A stretch of 64,000 nt of DNA from Lachnospiraceae bacterium. GTDB taxonomy: Bacteria > Bacillota > Clostridia > Lachnospirales > Lachnospiraceae. The notes beneath the pieces are model-generated. The model did no database searches. It saw only the letters and a list, made by a program, of their open reading frames with translations, and had not been told where the DNA came from. Each line of letters starts with the position of its first letter. The first letter of the stretch is position 1. The translations under genes were made by a program, and so were the position numbers. Of this stretch, positions 4,214 through 35,491 are shown one piece after another. The stretch lies in NCBI GenBank assembly GCA_031280955.1, contig JAITGA010000015.1, positions 9,334 through 73,333 on the forward strand. The letters are read 5' to 3'.

Positions 4214-5194
4214 ATGCTCGAAACATTCATAAAACATGATATTGTCATACCCCTTTTTATCGCTTTTGCGATCGTGGCTATCAGCGGTGTGCCGATTATC
4301 CGTCTTTTGCAGCGGCTAAAAGCTCGGCAGACGGTACGTGAGGACGGTCCTGACAGTCACAAGGTGAAGACGGGAACACCGACAATGGGGGGGATTTTGA
4401 TACTCGCCGGGATAGTCGGGGCAGCTGTTTTCTTTATAAACGACTATCCACGGGTGATACCGATTATATTGACGATGTTGGGTTTTGGTATCATCGGGTT
4501 TTTGGATGATTATATCAAGGTCTCGAAGAAGCGTTCACTAGGACTGAGGGCATGGCACAAGATTACCGCTCAACTGTTGGTTACGGCGGTTTTTGCATTT
4601 TATTTAACCTATATACTTGAAGTATCGTTGGCAATGCGGCTGCCATTTACCGATGGTAAGGTTTTGGATTTCGGGGTTATGAATATTCCCATTTTGTTCT
4701 TGGTGACGATAGCCGTAATCAATGCCGCCAACCTAACAGACGGACTGGATGGGTTGCTCGGGAGCGTGACCTTGATGGTGGCAGTATTCTTCGTTGTTGC
4801 CGCACTTTTGCTGGAGGCGGGAATCGCACCGCTTGCCGCGGCTACGGTAGGAGCTCTTCTAGGATATTTGCTCTACAATTCATACCCGGCAAGGGTGATG
4901 ATGGGTGACACAGGTTCATTTGCTCTAGGTGGTTTCATCGTCGCCAGTGCTTATTTGACCCAGTTACAACTGTTCATCCCCATCATTGGGCTAGTCTATG
5001 TCCTCGAGGCTTTGTCAGTCGTCATTCAGGTAGGATACTTCAAAATGAGTGGCGGCAAAAGAGTTTTTAAGATGGCTCCGCTTCATCATCACTTTGAGCT
5101 TTGCGGATGGAAAGAAACCAAGATAGTAGCCGTGTTTTTGATTGCTACGGCACTTCTTTGTATTTTGGGTTTGACAGGACTGAGTAAATGGTAA
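4214..5194 (+). CDS. mraY: Phospho-N-acetylmuramoyl-pentapeptide transferase MraY
   Basis: Polytopic membrane protein with NLTDGLDGL, MGDTGS and APLHHHFE motifs. The track ORF starts at TTG 4211; ATG at 4214 is more likely. Confidence 0.94.
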   Translation: MLETFIKHDIVIPLFIAFAIVAISGVPIIRLLQRLKARQTVREDGPDSHKVKTGTPTMGGILILAGIVGAAVFFINDYPRVIPIILTMLGFGIIGFLDDYIKVSKKRSLGLRAWHKITAQLLVTAVFAFYLTYILEVSLAMRLPFTDGKVLDFGVMNIPILFLVTIAVINAANLTDGLDGLLGSVTLMVAVFFVVAALLLEAGIAPLAAATVGALLGYLLYNSYPARVMMGDTGSFALGGFIVASAYLTQLQLFIPIIGLVYVLEALSVVIQVGYFKMSGGKRVFKMAPLHHHFELCGWKETKIVAVFLIATALLCILGLTGLSKW

Positions 5195-27910: not shown

Positions 27911-28546
27911 TTATTTTTCTTGTAAACCTCTCTTTTCAAAATAATCTTTATGGTTTTCAAAATGATAAATATATCGTGAAATAAATGCTTTATCAGTTGA
28001 AAGAATCGGCATCCTATTAGTTCCTTGCTTGTTATATGCCACACTATTTTCCAATAGAAAATCCGTCAATAAAGCTCTATCATCGCAAATAATGTACCAA
28101 AAATCAGAAATTCTATCATATTCTACAATCGTTAGTTTTTTTATGTTCGGTGATTTTGACCATTCTTTTTTTAACGTTTCTCTTTCTGTATCAAAAAAAT
28201 CATCATGTAACTCATGATTTTTTGGTAATTTTCTCAGCATAATTATACACTCATCAATAGACAAATTCATATTATTGATAAAGTGTTGTGCCTTAGTGCT
28301 TGAGTTGGTAGCATAAATCCTTAACAAATTAATATGTCTCTTCCCATTAATAGATTCAATTTTCTCAAATAGGTTTGAATAGGCATCATTTACTTCATTA
28401 ATGATTTCAACTGCAGTTGTTATGCTTGATTTGTTTTTGTGTGTATTCATAATTTTGTTGATAATCCAATGAACAAATTGGATTGCTAGAAATAATCCCA
28501 CTCCGCTAAAAAGCCATTCTTTGTTATCTGATAACCATGTAACCAT
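27911..28546 (-). CDS. Hypothetical N-terminally membrane-anchored protein
   Basis: 211 aa. One TM helix (WLFSGVGLFLAIQFVHWII). The remainder has no motif I can name. AT-rich, and co-oriented downstream of the kinase gene. Confidence 0.45.
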   Translation of the reverse strand: MVTWLSDNKEWLFSGVGLFLAIQFVHWIINKIMNTHKNKSSITTAVEIINEVNDAYSNLFEKIESINGKRHINLLRIYATNSSTKAQHFINNMNLSIDECIIMLRKLPKNHELHDDFFDTERETLKKEWSKSPNIKKLTIVEYDRISDFWYIICDDRALLTDFLLENSVAYNKQGTNRMPILSTDKAFISRYIYHFENHKDYFEKRGLQEK

Positions 28547-28792
28547 AAACTAGCCTCCTCTGATACGTGTTTTACTATCGTGATTGTCATCTATATTTTT
28601 CTTGTTCCATAATTCCCATTTGTATAATTGCTCTGTTACTAAATAGTGCGTAACTCCGGCTTGTCTTCTTCAGAGATTTTTTTCTACGCTGGTCGCAATA
28701 ACTGTTATTCTTGTAAAATATTCGCACCAATAATCTTTACATTTTTCCATATTCATTTTCCCTCGCTATAAAATGTCGTTTATTTAGTAATA

Positions 28793-31393
28793 TTAAAGCT
28801 GCTCAATAGTAATATTGAAGTTCCTAATAAAAAATCCATCAGATTCAATACCGCTATAAAAGACAACAGCAGATTGATTAGCGCTTAGTTCTTGCGACAC
28901 CATATACACATTATTGATATACACATCTGCAATTTTATCTTTTACATATATTTTTACAGTTGTGAAATCTTCCAGTTCTGTATTAAATATTGAAATCGGA
29001 GCTTTTGAAATAGTCGTTCCATTTCTATATAACTCAAATTGTAAATCTCTTGAACCAAAGGCTTTGGCATATTTAATATGCGGGTCGAAACGAAGGCCCA
29101 AATGGTCTGTACTGGCAATTCCAAAAGCATCTCCAAATTCATTGTCCGCATTGGTACCTAAGCATATTGTTACTAACTTCGAACGATAATTTCCTCTTTG
29201 TTTTACTTCAAACTCGACTATAAAATCGGAATAACCCTTCGGCATTATATTGAGAGCTAAATATCCTTTTTCAACTAACAAACCGTTACTACCATCAAAT
29301 TCTAGTTTACCCGACGATGACCAATTTCTTAATGGCGTCCCGCTCGTAAAACTCTCATTTAATCCTAAATATGCACTCACATCACAAACAGCCATTTCTG
29401 TTCCATCCTCAAGAGATAGAATGATCGTAGTTTTACCAGCAACTTTTGCTTCTACTTTCCCATTATTATCTACTGTAGCTATTGATGTATTATTTGACCT
29501 CCATACCAAGCTAACATTCTTAACTCCTTCAATGTTTGTGTTATATTTCAATTGCTCTGACTCCCCAATTGCAAGGTTTAGAGAATTTACATCAAGAGTA
29601 ACTTCAAATATGCTTAACAGCACACTCATAAACTTTGCAATTTCAAGATTGATTTCTTGTTCAAAAACAGGATAACCTTTTAACAAGTCTTTTAGCTCAG
29701 TTATTCCATTATCATAATCGTTTGATTCTTCTGTGTTTGTATTAATTTCAGAAATACGTGTCATTACATATTCTTTGTCCTTTGTATACATTATCTCGGT
29801 ATATTGTGTAAGAAGCGAAAGAAATTCATTGTCTACTGGTATTAGACTAAGAGCTAAGTTTAATCGGTTGATTATTTCCCCATATGCCTCTTTTGCTTCC
29901 AGTTCAGAAATAGAAGTGAGTATGTCATTTCTGTATAGCTCAATTGACTCATCTAGCTTCGACTGGGCGTTTAGATAATCATCATCCCTGTTAATAACTT
30001 TTCTTAGTTCATCTATCGCTAACATATAGTTCCTATTTGCCATAGCCTGTAAACCATTTTGATATGCCTTGTTAGAGCTTTCTAAATCGACATCTACAGA
30101 AGGTGTAGTAATTGCATCAGATAATATGTTTGCAATTGGATCATTATGATTTCCACCCGGCATAATCGATCTTAGAGCAAAAAACCCAGCCACTATAACT
30201 ATTATCGCAATAGCTACAGCTATTATAGGTTTATTTGATCTATTAGTTGATTTTAGTAGCAAAGCAGATTTTTGATTACTTACTGGAGTCATCACACTCG
30301 GCCTTGGGGTAGAACCTGGTGGCTTGATAGTCGTTTGTGTCAAAGAGGATTTTGGCCTAAATAATTGCGAAAACCTGTTATCCACTTCACACCACGGACA
30401 AGCCGATAACATCTTATAGTATTGGTGGTAAGAAACATTTTTACAGTTCTTTAGTTCATTACGTAAATTTCTTAATGCGTGATGCCAATCTACTGGAGTG
30501 GGGCGACTACTTGGGCTGAAATGACCGTCAATAAATGCCTGCTCAAATAAGTCCTGTATCTCTTTTGGCAAGATTGAAATCTCCGGTGCGTATGCCGGTA
30601 TTTTTATGTTCGGAAAACTCTGCATGAACGGAAATTCGCCTTTAATAATGTTGTCAGACGGCTGCGGAGCTACTACAGATGATTGGCTTGGAATTATTGC
30701 ACAAGCAAATGGATGGACACCATTTATAAGTAGTTGAAAAATATGAATTGATAAAGCAAAACCATCCGTATCTTGCGAAAAGGTTGGCAGCTTTGCTGTA
30801 GCTAAAGTACTGCCTCCACGCATTTTCACTTGGATTTCTCCCGGTAGATATTCAGGGATACCAACATCGCAGCGATAAGTATCATTGCCATCTTTGATAT
30901 GATAAGAATCGGTATCTAAAAAGCAAATATGCCCGGTATTTGGATTTACACTTATGTTTTTCGGATTAAAGTCACCGCATATATGTCCTGCATTATGAAC
31001 AGAATCTAACACTGCACAAAGATTTTCTGCGATAATAATGCGATTTTCCCATGTCATGTGAGGATATTTTGCAGACGAGCCATATTCATAAATGACATTC
31101 AAATCCTCACTAATATCCATCTTAGGCATAATAAAGCCAACAAACTGCCCGCTTTCATAAAGGACATCTTGTGGCCAAGCAATCTGTGACAAAACACTTT
31201 TGTCTGGTGGAAAATCAACCATCCTCACAAGTTTTTTTTCTTTCTCGAGGCTTGTCTTTCCGGGCAGATAAATTTTTGCTATCAACTTCGATTGCCCAAT
31301 AACATCAAAAATTTCGCCTTCACCACCTGTTGCAATTGGTTTTGTTGCTAGTTCGTATAATAATCCACCTTTACCTTTACACTTCATTGTCAT
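28793..31393 (-). CDS. Membrane Ser/Thr protein kinase (YegI/TerY-P-type) with Zn-ribbon-like element, TM helix, extracytoplasmic helical repeats, Big_2 and lectin/DUF1080-like jelly-roll
   Basis: Numbering follows the 866-aa ORF. Gly-loop ATGGEGEIF, Lys in LIAKIY (K40), catalytic loop HICGDFNPKN (D141/N146), LDTDS in the DFG position, and IPEYLPGE. CKNVSYHQYYKMLSACPWCE, then TM helix at aa 388-407. Big_2-like region at aa ~598-672 (LAIGESEQLKY...WRSNNTSIATVDNNGKVEAKVAGKTTII). C-terminal beta-rich region at aa ~680-866. M3 (31387) has better RBS spacing. Confidence 0.85.
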   Translation of the reverse strand: MTMKCKGKGGLLYELATKPIATGGEGEIFDVIGQSKLIAKIYLPGKTSLEKEKKLVRMVDFPPDKSVLSQIAWPQDVLYESGQFVGFIMPKMDISEDLNVIYEYGSSAKYPHMTWENRIIIAENLCAVLDSVHNAGHICGDFNPKNISVNPNTGHICFLDTDSYHIKDGNDTYRCDVGIPEYLPGEIQVKMRGGSTLATAKLPTFSQDTDGFALSIHIFQLLINGVHPFACAIIPSQSSVVAPQPSDNIIKGEFPFMQSFPNIKIPAYAPEISILPKEIQDLFEQAFIDGHFSPSSRPTPVDWHHALRNLRNELKNCKNVSYHQYYKMLSACPWCEVDNRFSQLFRPKSSLTQTTIKPPGSTPRPSVMTPVSNQKSALLLKSTNRSNKPIIAVAIAIIVIVAGFFALRSIMPGGNHNDPIANILSDAITTPSVDVDLESSNKAYQNGLQAMANRNYMLAIDELRKVINRDDDYLNAQSKLDESIELYRNDILTSISELEAKEAYGEIINRLNLALSLIPVDNEFLSLLTQYTEIMYTKDKEYVMTRISEINTNTEESNDYDNGITELKDLLKGYPVFEQEINLEIAKFMSVLLSIFEVTLDVNSLNLAIGESEQLKYNTNIEGVKNVSLVWRSNNTSIATVDNNGKVEAKVAGKTTIILSLEDGTEMAVCDVSAYLGLNESFTSGTPLRNWSSSGKLEFDGSNGLLVEKGYLALNIMPKGYSDFIVEFEVKQRGNYRSKLVTICLGTNADNEFGDAFGIASTDHLGLRFDPHIKYAKAFGSRDLQFELYRNGTTISKAPISIFNTELEDFTTVKIYVKDKIADVYINNVYMVSQELSANQSAVVFYSGIESDGFFIRNFNITIEQL

Positions 31394-31487
31394 ACCTCCA
31401 TATTTGCTTGAATTAAACTTCTAGTTTGGTTATTTATGAATAATGATTTCACCTCTTGTTACCTCGATATTAACTACCTTGCTCCCA

Positions 31488-32510
31488 TCATATAAAGTTT
31501 ATCTCAAAAACCAATTGGCTTTGATTGCAACTTATATCAAATACTGGATTACATCTATATAAAAACCAGTATTGTTCTTTCGCAATAGTGGCTACCTTAT
31601 CTATTATCCCTTCCAAATCATTTACATTTTTCACTTTTGCAATGATATTTTTCTTTCCATGCATTAAGCAGTTTTCTATTATTTTGCCGAGCTGTGTTGA
31701 GTTGTATGCCACCAATGAATTAATTGACATGAAATCATTGCCGACAGTCGTACAAACAGGGATATCATTAATAATCAAATGATCTTTTTTAATATCTTCG
31801 TCTGTAAGGTTAAAATAATCATACCGATTTGTCTTGTTCGTTAAAGTCATGTCAAAAGTAACATCCAAATGATACGCATTTCCATCAACAAAAACAATAT
31901 TCCATGCGTGTCTGTCGTTCTCTGTATTACCAAGCGGATCGGTTGCTTTTCCAAATACAACGATGCTCTTCATCCCAAGATAGTCAAGCGATAGTTTTAC
32001 AAATTTCGCAATGCCCTCACAAACGGCAGTTTTATTAAGAACCAATCCGAGTACGGAGCTTGAATAATTTCCAAACGAATAATCATATTTAAAGTTGTTC
32101 AAGCAATAATCGTGTACATATATCTCCTTATCTATATCGCTTCTTGATTTAATACCATCAAATGCAGTCAAATACTTAAGTATTTCAACTTCTATTTGCT
32201 TAACATCTTTCCGTTTATACTTGTATTCAGGCTGTATTATGATTTTGCTTTTGTATAGGTCATTTACATAGCTGAAAGATGACACATAAAATAGCAAGGG
32301 GCTATCAAGCAAAACACTTTCAAAGACCATGAAAATCTCATTCACCGGCCGCATGGGTAATTCAATTTCAATATTAAAGCTTTTAATACCCGATGCTAAT
32401 CTTTTATATACTGTTTTTTGAATATCATCTAAACAGTCATAATAGTACTGGCCTGTGTATAGGGGAGTTCTTAGTAAATTATGTAATCCTTGTTTTAATA
32501 ACATCATCAA
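31488..32510 (-). CDS. Transglutaminase-like (papain-fold Cys-His-Asp) protein, cytoplasmic
   Basis: Putative triad in the canonical order and context: TAVCEGIAKF (C164), DRHAWNIVFV (H201), YHLDVTFD (D216). No signal peptide is evident. Confidence 0.78.
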   Translation of the reverse strand: MMMLLKQGLHNLLRTPLYTGQYYYDCLDDIQKTVYKRLASGIKSFNIEIELPMRPVNEIFMVFESVLLDSPLLFYVSSFSYVNDLYKSKIIIQPEYKYKRKDVKQIEVEILKYLTAFDGIKSRSDIDKEIYVHDYCLNNFKYDYSFGNYSSSVLGLVLNKTAVCEGIAKFVKLSLDYLGMKSIVVFGKATDPLGNTENDRHAWNIVFVDGNAYHLDVTFDMTLTNKTNRYDYFNLTDEDIKKDHLIINDIPVCTTVGNDFMSINSLVAYNSTQLGKIIENCLMHGKKNIIAKVKNVNDLEGIIDKVATIAKEQYWFLYRCNPVFDISCNQSQLVFEINFI

Positions 32511-32527
32511 GCATCACTAGCCTCCGA

Positions 32528-33442
32528 CTAAGGTTTGGTATCATGTGAGAGTTCCGAATCTGCATCAGCCGTAGTGAAATTTCCTTCATCTTTATACAAG
32601 TGGGGATATGCCTTTTTGTTCCATTCCATTTGCAAGGTATCCCAATCTGGTTCTATGTAGTAGCTATCTTCTTTTAACTCAGGTAAAACTTTATCATTAA
32701 TTAGAACGATTATAGATTTATCATCGGTTATCGAAGCACATCCTTCACCATTAAGGAACTTTTCTCTTTCTTTACCTACTAACTCAATTGTTTCGGGTGA
32801 TGCACCCATGACATTATTATCCATAAAATACCTTATCAATGGAACGTATATTTCAACTGGTTGCCCTTTCAAAAGATATGGAAAAAATACATCATAAACT
32901 CCGTCAGTAGCAAGTAAAACGCTGGTAAAGTTACCTTCTGCCTTATTAATTATCCAGGTATCTTTTCCAGCCCTCAAAGGGATAACATATACATTTTCTT
33001 TTTTTTGTGGTTCCGTGATTTTCATGTAATCACCATCACTAGAAAGACCAACAATCCCACCATCACCGCTATGCCCGTAAGCAACATTTTTGCCATCATA
33101 AATTACAAGCGATAATGTGGTGTCATATTCAATTATTAAGTTACCGTCTGAAAGGGAACGTTTGTCAATTTCTTGCTCCGCATAACTAAAAGCTTTTTGA
33201 ATTATATGTAACAAGTCAGGAGCATCACTTACGGACATTATTTCTTCGCTGCAAACGCGGACAGAAGTTTCGACAGCAATGGACGAAGCAATATCAGAAT
33301 ACTTACAGCTTCCTACACCATCAGCCACAGCAGCTATTACAGTTCCATTTTCTAACCGCTCTGTTTTAATTGAATCTTGATTGCCAACTACTTTTTCCAT
33401 ATGCGAAGAGCCAATTGATGTATAATCATAAAAAAGAACCAT
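32528..33442 (-). CDS. PP2C-family Ser/Thr phosphatase
   Basis: GNQDS, AAVADGVGS, GHSGDGGI, LLATDGVYDVF and TDDKSIIVL motifs. The start is taken at MVLFYDY (RBS GGGAAGGGAGG); the track ORF extends to 33472. Confidence 0.85.
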   Translation of the reverse strand: MVLFYDYTSIGSSHMEKVVGNQDSIKTERLENGTVIAAVADGVGSCKYSDIASSIAVETSVRVCSEEIMSVSDAPDLLHIIQKAFSYAEQEIDKRSLSDGNLIIEYDTTLSLVIYDGKNVAYGHSGDGGIVGLSSDGDYMKITEPQKKENVYVIPLRAGKDTWIINKAEGNFTSVLLATDGVYDVFFPYLLKGQPVEIYVPLIRYFMDNNVMGASPETIELVGKEREKFLNGEGCASITDDKSIIVLINDKVLPELKEDSYYIEPDWDTLQMEWNKKAYPHLYKDEGNFTTADADSELSHDTKP

Positions 33443-33478
33443 GTAACCTGACCTCCCTTCCCAAACATACATAGATTC

Positions 33479-34198
33479 CTACCAATCACTTGTATCCTGC
33501 GGGTCAATTTTCTTAACTTCTTCCGGCAAGCGTGGCAATGCAGGCTTCTCGCCGACACGGCTTACAGAAATAACCTTCATACTTTCAGCAATCCACCGAA
33601 GAACTGGCGCAAAGTCAAAATCGCCAAGCTCCATGATGCGCGGATTTTCGCCTTGATGCATTGTAAGCTTTACTAATGTATTTTTATCGTAGCCAGGAAC
33701 TCCTAATGCCAAAAATCTTAGTTTACCTTGTGATCCTTTGGATTCTTCTAACTCAATCCGCTCTCTGGCACTCTCTATATCATCATTTCCATCAGGCAAG
33801 CCATCGGTAATCATGAATAACCAAGGTATGTAAACAGGCGTTCCCAATTCATTATAGAATCTGTTACGTTCTTTAAGCTGGTCAATAGCTAAGTGGATGC
33901 CTTTACTCATGGCGGTTGTGCCATCAACAGTAAGCGTTATTGGTTCCATTTGCGATATTGGTGTAAACGGAACAACTACTTTTGCCTCGCTGTTAAATGA
34001 AACAATGCAAATATCAAGACATTTTTGCACCATTTCATCGGAAGCAAGATGCTTGCGAAAATCCTTGATAGCTTGATTAAGGTTGTCAATCGCTTCGCCT
34101 TCCATTGAATATGATGTGTCTACTAAAAGAACGCAAGCCATGTGTGCACCTCCAGGATTTGCAATTTTTGGTGTACCAAAAGTTTCTTGTGATATCAT
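33479..34198 (-). CDS. von Willebrand factor A (TerY-like) domain protein
   Basis: Intact MIDAS: DTSYS (D27-x-S-x-S), GTTAMSKG and MITDGLPDG. Strong RBS GGGAGG. No signal peptide. Confidence 0.85.
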   Translation of the reverse strand: MISQETFGTPKIANPGGAHMACVLLVDTSYSMEGEAIDNLNQAIKDFRKHLASDEMVQKCLDICIVSFNSEAKVVVPFTPISQMEPITLTVDGTTAMSKGIHLAIDQLKERNRFYNELGTPVYIPWLFMITDGLPDGNDDIESARERIELEESKGSQGKLRFLALGVPGYDKNTLVKLTMHQGENPRIMELGDFDFAPVLRWIAESMKVISVSRVGEKPALPRLPEEVKKIDPQDTSDW

Positions 34199-34263
34199 TG
34201 TTTTCCTCCCTTTTTTTGTTAGTATGATATATTAGACATGTTTAAAATCATATTACTCATAGT

Positions 34264-34434
34264 TTAGCGTTCAATATTGTAGTCGCCGCGTTCATATGCT
34301 TCATAATTACCGCAATTCTTATAGTTATAATGATCTTTGCAGTAGTAATCCCTATCTCTACCATCTTTATATGTGTTATGATGCTCTGGTGTTACCCTGC
34401 AATATGAGTTAGTATAATCATAAACTGGACACAT
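34264..34434 (-). CDS. Cys/Tyr-rich micro-protein (56 aa; below the track cutoff)
   Basis: My translation is MCPVYDYTNSYCRVTPEHHNTYKDGRDRDYYCKDHYNYKNCGNYEAYERGDYNIER. AAGGAGG lies 9 nt upstream of the ATG. It is the first ORF of the co-oriented string. Confidence 0.45.
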   Translation of the reverse strand: MCPVYDYTNSYCRVTPEHHNTYKDGRDRDYYCKDHYNYKNCGNYEAYERGDYNIER

Positions 34435-34480
34435 GATGACTCGCCTCCTTTCTCATAAAGATCTTAGCTTTAGTCAAGCA

Positions 34481-34504
34481 TATCAAAAGGTATACCTTTT
34501 GATA
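34481..34504. promoter_or_regulatory. Perfect 24-bp palindrome TATCAAAAGGTATACCTTTTGATA (hix/res-like site 1)
   Basis: Read directly from the sequence. The half-site TATCAAAAGG resembles the TTATCAAAAACC half-site of Hin/Gin-family sites (from memory). Confidence 0.7.
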
Positions 34505-34584
34505 ATAATTCTCTGGGATGTTAAAATTTCGATTTAAGGTTGCTTTCACTCCCAAAATAGTTTAAAATAGGAAATAGTTTGAGG

Positions 34585-34610
34585 CTATCAAAAGGTATAC
34601 CTTTTGGTAG
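34585..34610. promoter_or_regulatory. 26-bp palindrome CTATCAAAAGGTATACCTTTTGGTAG (site 2, one mismatched pair)
   Basis: It has the same 20-bp core as site 1, about 105 bp away, and abuts the recombinase stop codon (34612-34614). Confidence 0.7.
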
Positions 34611-34611
34611 C

Positions 34612-35193
34612 CTACTTTTTGCCTTTCAATAGCCGCCATTCTCGTAAACGCCTGTAAAACGTGGCTTCTTTCAATCCTGTTTGCGTTAAAATATCCGAAA
34701 TTGATATATTTCCATGCTCCCATTGATTAACCAAAGAATCAAAATTTTCGGGGAGCTTTTTGGTGGGGCGGCCAAGATGCACACCCCGTGCTCGTGCCGC
34801 CGCAATACCTTCTCGCTGACGTTGTAAGAGATATTCTCTTTCCAATTCTGATACCGCTCCAAATACCGTCAACATAAACTTGCCAGTAGGTGTAGACGTG
34901 TTGATATTCTCTTTTTGACTTATAAATTTCACATTTTTTGCAGTTAGTTTATCTATCAAAACCAATAAATCCCGCGTGTTTCTGGCAAAACGACTTACCG
35001 ATTCAACTATAATAGTATCGCCGCTTTTTGCAGTAGTCATGAGTTTTTGAAGTTCTGGACGTGCCATATTTTTTCCGCTTAACTTGTCGGTAAAAATATT
35101 TTCCAACGGGATTTTCAGCTCGGCCATTGCTATGATTTGTCTATCTGTGCATTGTTCGGTACAGCTAACGCGAATATACGCAAATATTGCCAT
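34612..35193 (-). CDS. Small serine recombinase (resolvase/invertase family)
   Basis: 193 aa. Catalytic YIRVSCTEQ (Ser10), VESVSRFARN, E-helix, GRPTK hinge and a C-terminal HTH (ISISDILTQTGLKEATFYRRL). Confidence 0.9.
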   Translation of the reverse strand: MAIFAYIRVSCTEQCTDRQIIAMAELKIPLENIFTDKLSGKNMARPELQKLMTTAKSGDTIIVESVSRFARNTRDLLVLIDKLTAKNVKFISQKENINTSTPTGKFMLTVFGAVSELEREYLLQRQREGIAAARARGVHLGRPTKKLPENFDSLVNQWEHGNISISDILTQTGLKEATFYRRLREWRLLKGKK

Positions 35194-35491
35194 ATTTCAC
35201 CATTCTTTCTACACGAACTTCGTGTTTTTGGTTATAAGTCAGTATCTTCAAACTACCATTCAAACTAAATCATGGCATACTTTATATTTCTATACCATTG
35301 GTTTAATGTTAGCAAGGATAAAAAATCGTATTTCAAACTATTACCCCCCACCCCCTCCAAAGAAATATTTTGCATTTTCCCCTTTTACCAGTTATAATCA
35401 ATGAGAAAGTTGGAGAAGCGATATTTGGTTGTCACTATGGACTTTTACTTATTGTGGATAATTAGTTACTAAACGAAAGTGGAGGAAATCT

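Follow-up and report, generated by a model that had tools for sequence, protein, structure and literature searches.

Two palindromes that resemble the hix and res sites of serine recombinases are found about 105 bp apart in a Lachnospiraceae genome fragment, between the gene of a small serine recombinase and an operon that encodes, among other proteins, a kinase-like one. Their arrangement raises the question of what they do. The preliminary description of this locus, made from the sequence alone, offered three readings: (a) the ends of a small invertible promoter switch for the operon, (b) subsites of a resolvase res site, or (c) operators. The window referred to below is the whole stretch of DNA that was analyzed (64,000 nucleotides), and its central features are as follows.

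34612 to 35193, minus strand: small serine recombinase of the invertase/resolvase type, 193 aa (PF00239, E = 3e-39)
34585 to 34610, no strand: IRL, the predicted recombinase-proximal crossover site, CTATCAAAAGGT AT ACCTTTTGGTAG, core AT at 34597-98
34480 to 34505, no strand: IRR, the predicted operon-proximal crossover site, ATATCAAAAGGT AT ACCTTTTGATAA, core AT at 34492-93
34493 to 34597, no strand: predicted invertible segment, core to core, 105 bp or 10.0 helical turns, as judged from the family spacings and their 10.5-bp periodicity

The recombinase belongs to the small serine recombinases. It contains the PF00239 domain with the catalytic serine and the conserved arginines (R8, S10, R68, and R71), followed by a C-terminal DNA-binding domain that is preceded by a Gly-Arg minor-groove arm. 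It retains all residues that are invariant in its clade, which also include E118, R119, and the G141-R142-P143 arm. Alignment with gamma-delta resolvase covers the full length, through residue 185, and alignment with Gin covers the catalytic domain; in sequence the protein is no closer to Gin than to the resolvase (1e-28 for gamma-delta versus 5e-26 for Gin). An NCBIfam search of the protein returned no model at its cut-off, and its score against the Mpi family model NF009949 is 68 bits, compared to the cut-off of 272.

As the preliminary description stated, TATCAAAAGGTATACCTTTTGATA at 34481-34504 is a perfect palindrome, with 24 of 24 positions matching, and a second copy with one mismatch is found at 34586-34609. 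The latter had been described as a palindrome with one mismatched pair that abuts the recombinase stop codon. This recombinase-proximal palindrome actually extends to 32 bp (34582-34613) and overlaps by 2 nt the TAG stop codon at 34612-34614 on the minus strand. Both sites have the 12-2-12 architecture with a central AT that had been noted, and their centers are 105 bp apart. No further copies of the TATCAAAAGGTATACCTTTTGATA palindrome are present in the 64-kb window at up to 3 mismatches, with none expected from shuffled sequences, so the full sites are unique. The shorter core GGTATACC occurs in the window just twice, as had been counted; at least two copies of it are found in 9 of 100 shuffles, which makes this count weak evidence when taken alone. 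A half-site scan for a distant partner site in the window recovered as real only the four half-sites of these two palindromes, the other matches having 2 mismatches and no dyad.

The Hin half-site quoted in the preliminary description is correct. HixL consists of TTCTTGAAAACC AA GGTTTTTGATAA, and hixR has the same right half (PMC3241671, Table 3). The window half-site ACCTTTTGATAA is identical to GGTTTTTGATAA in 9 of 12 positions and shares the 12-2-12 layout with it. A pair of 26-bp 12-2-12 palindromes in inverted orientation around predicted invertible DNA is found here, as in the Din (Hin, Gin, Cin, and Pin) systems, but the asymmetric 2-bp core of those systems, which is identical in their two sites, is replaced by a symmetric AT in both sites. 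The preliminary description had cautioned that a palindromic central dinucleotide gives no directionality, and the caution holds: the sites have no polarity, so that deletion is chemically allowed. In the Hin system, the symmetric hixC site is bound better by the recombinase but inverts 16-fold more slowly (PMC2427008).

Relatives of this locus (designated here by L numbers) were drawn from metagenomes, reference genomes, viral contigs, and look-ups of exact proteins. In about 35 of them, with recombinases that show 59 to 77% amino acid identity to that of the window, a site pair is found directly after the recombinase stop codon, and 34 switch pairs were analyzed. Within this closer clade, the pair is present in nearly every locus that has enough downstream sequence, and in most loci the center of the proximal site lies 13 to 19 nt past the stop codon. 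The hosts are Clostridia, mostly from termite gut, with the addition of a Pelotomaculum MAG and a Family XIII MAG. More distant homologs (52 to 58% identity), found in Agathobaculum, Oscillibacter, and many viral contigs, lack such a pair behind the stop codon, which makes the architecture specific to the closer clade.

In the sites of the relatives, the central dinucleotide varies from locus to locus and is flanked by palindromic arms, which are TnTCAAAAGG-like. In about 29 relatives the cores are asymmetric, namely TC/GA, AC/GT, GT/AC, CT/AG, AG/CT, and TT/AA or AA/TT, and in every such pair the two cores are reverse complements of each other. Asymmetries of the arms are mirrored between the paired sites as well. 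Symmetric cores, as in the window, are also found in L020, L081, L084, and L085. Such covariation is what would be expected of serine recombinase crossover sites and not of operators, res subsites, or RNA hairpins, and the adjacent recombinase very probably uses the two palindromes in the window as its crossover sites. Operator function, reading (c), might still be a side effect, given that the sites overlap −35 boxes, but it would explain neither the covariation of the cores nor the inversions described below.

Two loci, L023 (1314-1710) and L025 (2532-2964), have tandem switches behind one recombinase gene, with the cores TT/AA followed by AC/GT and with a separate promoter in each switch. 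This arrangement suggests that different core dinucleotides might keep neighboring switches from recombining with each other.

The covariation also bears on reading (b), in which the palindromes would be resolvase subsites that serve for dimer or cointegrate resolution of a mobile element. The equally good score of the protein against gamma-delta resolvase and Gin, the low-GC island in which the locus is found, and the mobile-element or prophage-like contexts of the closest relatives would all suit a res site. Nevertheless, the gene is followed and not preceded by the sites, which share the same 12-2-12 geometry, are inverted, and have cores that covary within each locus; the relatives show inversion and not deletion, and neither a transposase nor a second res copy is found in the window. 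Reading (b) is accordingly hardly credible for this locus.

Comparison of closely related modules provides two cases in which the segment between the sites has flipped relative to the recombinase gene; in both, the modules compared are related ones in different contexts and not one locus sampled twice. L161 and L163 come from the same sample (3300038395), and each encodes a recombinase with 77% identity to that of the window. Between the two, the recombinase genes match in plus/plus alignment (87% over 608 nt), whereas the regions from IR to IR align plus/minus (93% over 163 nt, E = 2e-67), and the break falls inside the sites. In L025 and L085, the genes are 70% identical in plus/plus alignment, whereas the IR-to-IR regions are 73% identical in plus/minus alignment over 179 nt (E = 3e-23). 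The segment of L085 is thus inverted relative to its L025 homolog, even though the L085 core is symmetric. An all-versus-all comparison of the first 80 metagenome loci had revealed no inverted segments, only a convergent recombinase end in L001 and short palindromes; the inverted segments emerged once closer relatives were added to the comparison.

Several peculiarities of the assembled loci can be mentioned here. The L167 scaffold has a run of Ns exactly between the two sites (4265-4290), and contigs L010, L031, L033, and L162 end at or just past the proximal site. Such gaps and contig ends would result if mixed orientations confused the assembler, but they prove nothing. In L001 (1533-1634) and L164 (5740-5790), the sequence past the distal site is the 3' end of another recombinase gene, which has diverged and is oriented convergently; this is either a real convergent pair acting on one switch or a chimeric assembly. 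L001 was considered as a fold-back artefact that would prove mixed orientations and was rejected, as its right flank is identical to the left one in just 94 of 102 positions.

The distances between paired sites, center to center, form a ladder:

105 bp: 1 pair (the window)
117 bp: 1 pair
125 to 126 bp: 2 pairs
135 to 138 bp: 13 pairs
146 to 148 bp: 7 pairs
158 bp: 2 pairs
165 to 167 bp: 3 pairs
178 to 179 bp: 5 pairs

The spacings show a periodicity that peaks at 10.5 bp, with R = 0.83 and a phase of about 0 (n = 30, after removal of related duplicates). The Rayleigh p value is about 1e-9, and none of 20,000 random sets reaches this R when periods from 9.5 to 11.5 bp are scanned. Between the 28 clusters into which the inner segments can be grouped, no similarity is detectable, and within related clusters the lengths differ by about 10 or 33 bp. 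An additional relative in a viral contig also has a spacing of 117 bp. These data point to a family that works with very short loops, provided that both sites lie on the same face of the helix. In the preliminary description, 105 bp had been flagged as very short for serine invertase synapsis. It is indeed the shortest spacing in the family, the next being 117 bp; as an objection, however, this is eased by the relatives at 117 to 179 bp, which are in helical register, and by the window spacing of exactly 10 turns. No description of a clostridial serine invertase promoter switch, or of such phasing, was found in the limited literature searched, and the motif is absent from the available part of the inverton supplement text of PMC11892184.

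The cassette and the two sites contain the following elements, in which promoters and terminator are assigned by consensus matches only.

34499 to 34527, plus strand: switch promoter TTGATA-N17-TGtTAAAAT, with 10 of 12 consensus positions plus the TG
34564 to 34591, minus strand: weak operon-facing element TTGATA-N16-TATTTT, 9 of 12, with its −35 box in the inner half of IRL
34582 to 34623, plus strand: terminator-like hairpin formed by IRL, with a 14-bp stem, plus ACTTTTTGCC (consensus match)

The −35 box of the switch promoter lies inside the inner half of IRR. This promoter fits the element TTGnnn-N17-TGnTAnAAT, which is conserved between the sites of the family at 20 to 60 nt from one of them, and it is the only good promoter in the cassette. 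Inverted repeats around a promoter, adjoining a recombinase gene, are the arrangement seen in invertons. The preliminary description had listed two promoter-like elements, TTGCTT-N17-TAAAAT (34540-34568, plus strand) and TTGATA-N16-TATTTT on the minus strand. Both are present, but the former is weaker than the promoter at 34499-34527 and is not the relevant one; the direction that had been given, away from the operon, was correct.

As assembled, the switch promoter faces the recombinase gene. Its transcript would reach IRL about 55 nt past the promoter and form the 14-bp hairpin followed by ACUUUUUGCC, a terminator-like structure; a 91-nt transcript that includes this stem folds with −25.4 kcal/mol. 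The hairpin plus ACTTTTTGCC would halt such transcripts short of antisense reading of the recombinase gene. With the promoter aimed at the recombinase and its terminator-like hairpin, and with no strong promoter between IRR and the first operon ORF, the assembled state appears to be OFF for the operon. The weak minus-strand element could provide basal operon expression in the present orientation.

Among the relatives, the conserved promoter is aimed at the recombinase in about 23 to 25 loci and at the target gene in about 5 to 6 (L001, L083, L085, L161, L165/L166, and probably L009). This bias of the assembled loci, about 4:1, could reflect selection for the OFF state, a recombination equilibrium that favors one orientation, or feedback on the recombinase by antisense transcription. 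Across the family, IRL and IRR have different flanks. A-runs of at least 4, which read as U-runs on the other strand, precede IRL in 21 of 32 loci, and T-runs follow it in 14 of 32, whereas T-runs of at least 4 follow IRR in only 2 of 32. By this asymmetry, IRL resembles a terminator that works in both directions, and IRR a hairpin that lets transcription through.

Could the palindromes act only in RNA, with the proximal one as the recombinase terminator and the distal one as a 5'-UTR hairpin, and with no DNA recombination? The terminator-like call on the plus strand, the stability of the hairpin, and the T-runs after IRL are what such an explanation would predict. It accounts neither for two near-identical copies nor for their hix-like half-sites, nor for cores that are reverse complements although they fall in the hairpin loop, where there is no RNA pairing constraint. 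The helical phasing and the inverted segments of the relatives are likewise left unexplained, and there is no Rfam match, only subthreshold noise from microRNA hairpins. An RNA-only role is thus highly improbable, and of the three original readings it is the invertible promoter, reading (a), that is supported by the site pairs of some 35 relatives, by the covariation of their cores, and by the presence of both orientations in related loci.

In the mechanism proposed for this promoter switch, the locus would be a self-contained phase-variation module, a recombinase gene followed by a mini-inverton. Recombinase dimers would bind the two hix-like 26-bp sites and pair them in a synapse that closes a tight loop of 10 helical turns. 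Cleavage of all four strands at the central AT, followed by exchange of the half-sites through subunit rotation, would flip the 105-bp cassette. In the OFF state, the promoter would point towards the recombinase and its transcript would meet the proximal hairpin and U-tract. In the ON state, transcription from the inverted, still intact promoter would pass the distal site, where a U-tract is missing, and enter the operon. We infer the flipping of the window copy, its ON/OFF outcome for transcription, and the looping geometry from the features described above. The corresponding junction sequences at the window locus are listed below.

Reference junctions: GCATATCAAAAGGTATACCTTTTGATAATAATTCTC and AGTTTGAGGCTATCAAAAGGTATACCTTTTGGTAGCC
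Predicted flipped junctions: GCATATCAAAAGGTATACCTTTTGATAGCCTCAAAC and CCCAGAGAATTATTATCAAAAGGTATACCTTTTGGTAGCCTAC, or GCATATCAAAAGGTATACCTTTTGATAGCCTCAAAC and CCAGAGAATTATTATCAAAAGGTATACCTTTTGGTAGCC
Predicted deletion product: GCATATCAAAAGGTATACCTTTTGGTAGCCTAC

The main alternative is a locked or decaying switch with no meaningful flipping, whose sites would act mainly as operators over two −35 boxes and as RNA hairpins. Other assemblies of the locus were sought using the exact small ORF and vWA proteins of the operon. One Logan contig was found, SRR14710903_101306, which is 100% identical to the window locus over 430 nt, so the orientation is the same in both assemblies, the MAG contig and this one. 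Besides the single orientation, a locked switch would fit the symmetric AT cores, the shortest spacing in the family, and the TTGATA −35 boxes in both sites, and a distance of 10 turns suits repressor looping, too. Decay of the module is exemplified by L161 (5583-5860), where the promoter faces the target side, IRR is degenerate in its outer half, and no target gene follows on that strand, just a convergent gene with its terminator; this module is probably a decaying, locked copy. On the other hand, a fossil would be expected to drift, and the window sites are near perfect (24 of 24, and one mismatched pair), the recombinase has all its invariant residues, and the helical register is kept. Symmetric cores recur in four other loci, including L085 with its inverted segment. 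A locked state is therefore unlikely, and the window locus is probably an active invertible promoter switch.

This switch combines features of several known systems. With the Din invertases it shares a small serine recombinase (about 190 aa) that combines a GRP arm with a C-terminal HTH, inverted 26-bp 12-2-12 sites of the hix/gix/cix/pix type (with the half-site ...TTTTGATAA matching hix in 9 of 12 positions), and, as in Hin, a promoter carried on the inverted segment. The core dinucleotide sets polarity in Din systems; the asymmetric, reverse-complementary cores of the relatives agree with this, while those of the window are symmetric. The segment measures 105 to 179 bp here, compared to about 1 to 4 kb in Din systems, and is 10 to 40 times shorter. 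The site pair immediately follows the 3' end of the recombinase gene, its spacing is quantized in helical turns, and the protein is no more similar to Gin than to gamma-delta resolvase. The hosts are Clostridia, which to our knowledge have no Fis, and an enhancer bound by Fis is therefore unlikely. Hin requires such an enhancer in cis, acting in an invertasome (PMC3798978); none was identified at the window locus.

Mpi is a Bacteroides serine recombinase that flips short capsule promoter cassettes in the phase variation of the cell surface (PMC10403206). It resembles the present system in flipping short promoter cassettes but acts in trans on 7 to 13 dispersed promoters, whereas here every recombinase gene is accompanied by an adjacent switch of its own, or by a tandem pair. 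The inverted-repeat sequences also differ, and the window protein falls far below the Mpi model cut-off (see above). Invertons of tyrosine recombinases, such as fimS (FimB/FimE) and those of RecV in Clostridioides difficile, likewise have a short invertible promoter that turns an adjacent operon ON or OFF, but they rely on another enzyme class and chemistry and have no hix-like layout with a 2-bp core. Inverton group 139 of Clostridia (PMC11892184) also belongs to these tyrosine recombinase invertons, a type that is common in gut Clostridia. The res sites of Tn3/gamma-delta and Sin are served by proteins of the same fold, with dimers on several sites within about 100 to 130 bp. Resolvase binding at res represses promoters as well. 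However, res lies upstream of the gene, its subsites are differently spaced, only site I recombines, and the second res copy is in direct repeat, so that the product is a deletion.

Judged by these comparisons, the window locus is assignable neither to the Mpi family nor to the Din invertases and is not a res site. Assignment to Din is opposed by a similarity to Gin that is no higher than to resolvase, the short segment, the 3' position of the sites, the unlikely Fis enhancer, and the symmetric cores. The serine invertase inverton as a kind is known; the features likely to be new to specialists are the helical quantization and the built-in terminator logic.

The control of serine invertases is understood through the Fis/enhancer invertasome on kilobase segments. 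A compact family with cassettes of 105 to 179 bp poses the question of whether a minimal DNA loop takes the place of the enhancer. We tentatively suggest that this clade might need no Fis-type enhancer, that a phased mini-loop of 10 to 17 turns might serve as the topological filter for synapsis and inversion, and that recombinase, bidirectional terminator, and promoter cassette might together make up a portable phase-variation unit for any downstream gene. For synthetic biology, such a very small unit of recombinase, terminator, and flipping promoter is attractive for engineered switches, and the cores of the relatives point to a possible set of dinucleotides by which cross-reaction between switches would be avoided. 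In genome annotation, these genes are labeled as "Pin-like invertase" with no target assigned, and a search rule for a pair of 26-bp inverted repeats right after the stop codon would give targets to the whole clade.

The genes downstream of the switch differ from locus to locus. In the relatives they mostly encode secreted or surface proteins, including a phage-tail lysozyme with M23 peptidase; NlpC/P60 with Big_2 and fn3; Cu_amine_oxidN1 (the copper amine oxidase N-terminal domain) and proteins with SLH and Flg_new repeats; an RHS protein; SPFH with zinc-ribbon and Prok-RING proteins; an amidase; and a FakA-like protein with acyltransferases. The closest relatives adjoin Bro-N/KilA-N, helicase, and integrase genes, and some of them are found in predicted viral contigs. 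Given these mobile-element-like contexts and the lack of conservation of the downstream genes, the module looks portable. In the window, the operon consists of the following genes.

34264 to 34434, minus strand: 56-aa Cys/Tyr-rich ORF, the first gene, with a strong AGGAGG ribosome-binding site
33479 to 34198, minus strand: vWA protein
32528 to 33472, minus strand: PP2C phosphatase
31488 to 32510, minus strand: transglutaminase-like protein
28793 to 31393, minus strand: protein of 866 aa with a kinase-like N terminus, a membrane span, and a Big_2 domain

The earlier label of a kinase operon thus captures one of its products, the kinase-like protein, and leaves out the 56-aa ORF and three of the four genes that follow it (28793-34198, minus strand). 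Phase variation of this operon is probable, with the assembled population in the OFF state. The GC content is 31 to 41% in the 28- to 35-kb block (28000-35200), compared to 47 to 51% in the fakA-side flank (36 to 40 kb), and the recombinase with the operon looks like an acquired island. The description of the operon as defence-like finds no backing in PADLOC, which returned no match for the small ORF and the vWA, PP2C, and transglutaminase-like proteins and only a marginal partial match for the 866-aa protein (MkoA, E = 5e-4).

The N-terminal region of the 866-aa protein, about 330 aa, contains the kinase-like motifs GGEGEIF, HICGDFNPKN, and DTDSY. It is missed by the Pfam kinase models, and its sole match is a weak one to the kinase part of LanL (E = 2e-5). 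The 56-aa ORF is the only downstream gene that recurs among the relatives, and it does so once. It might encode a RiPP-like precursor peptide, although the window operon has no radical-SAM gene. Its one homolog, in L008 (7138-7245, 54% identity over 37 aa), is likewise located downstream of a switch, just before a radical-SAM gene (L008, 8155-9588).
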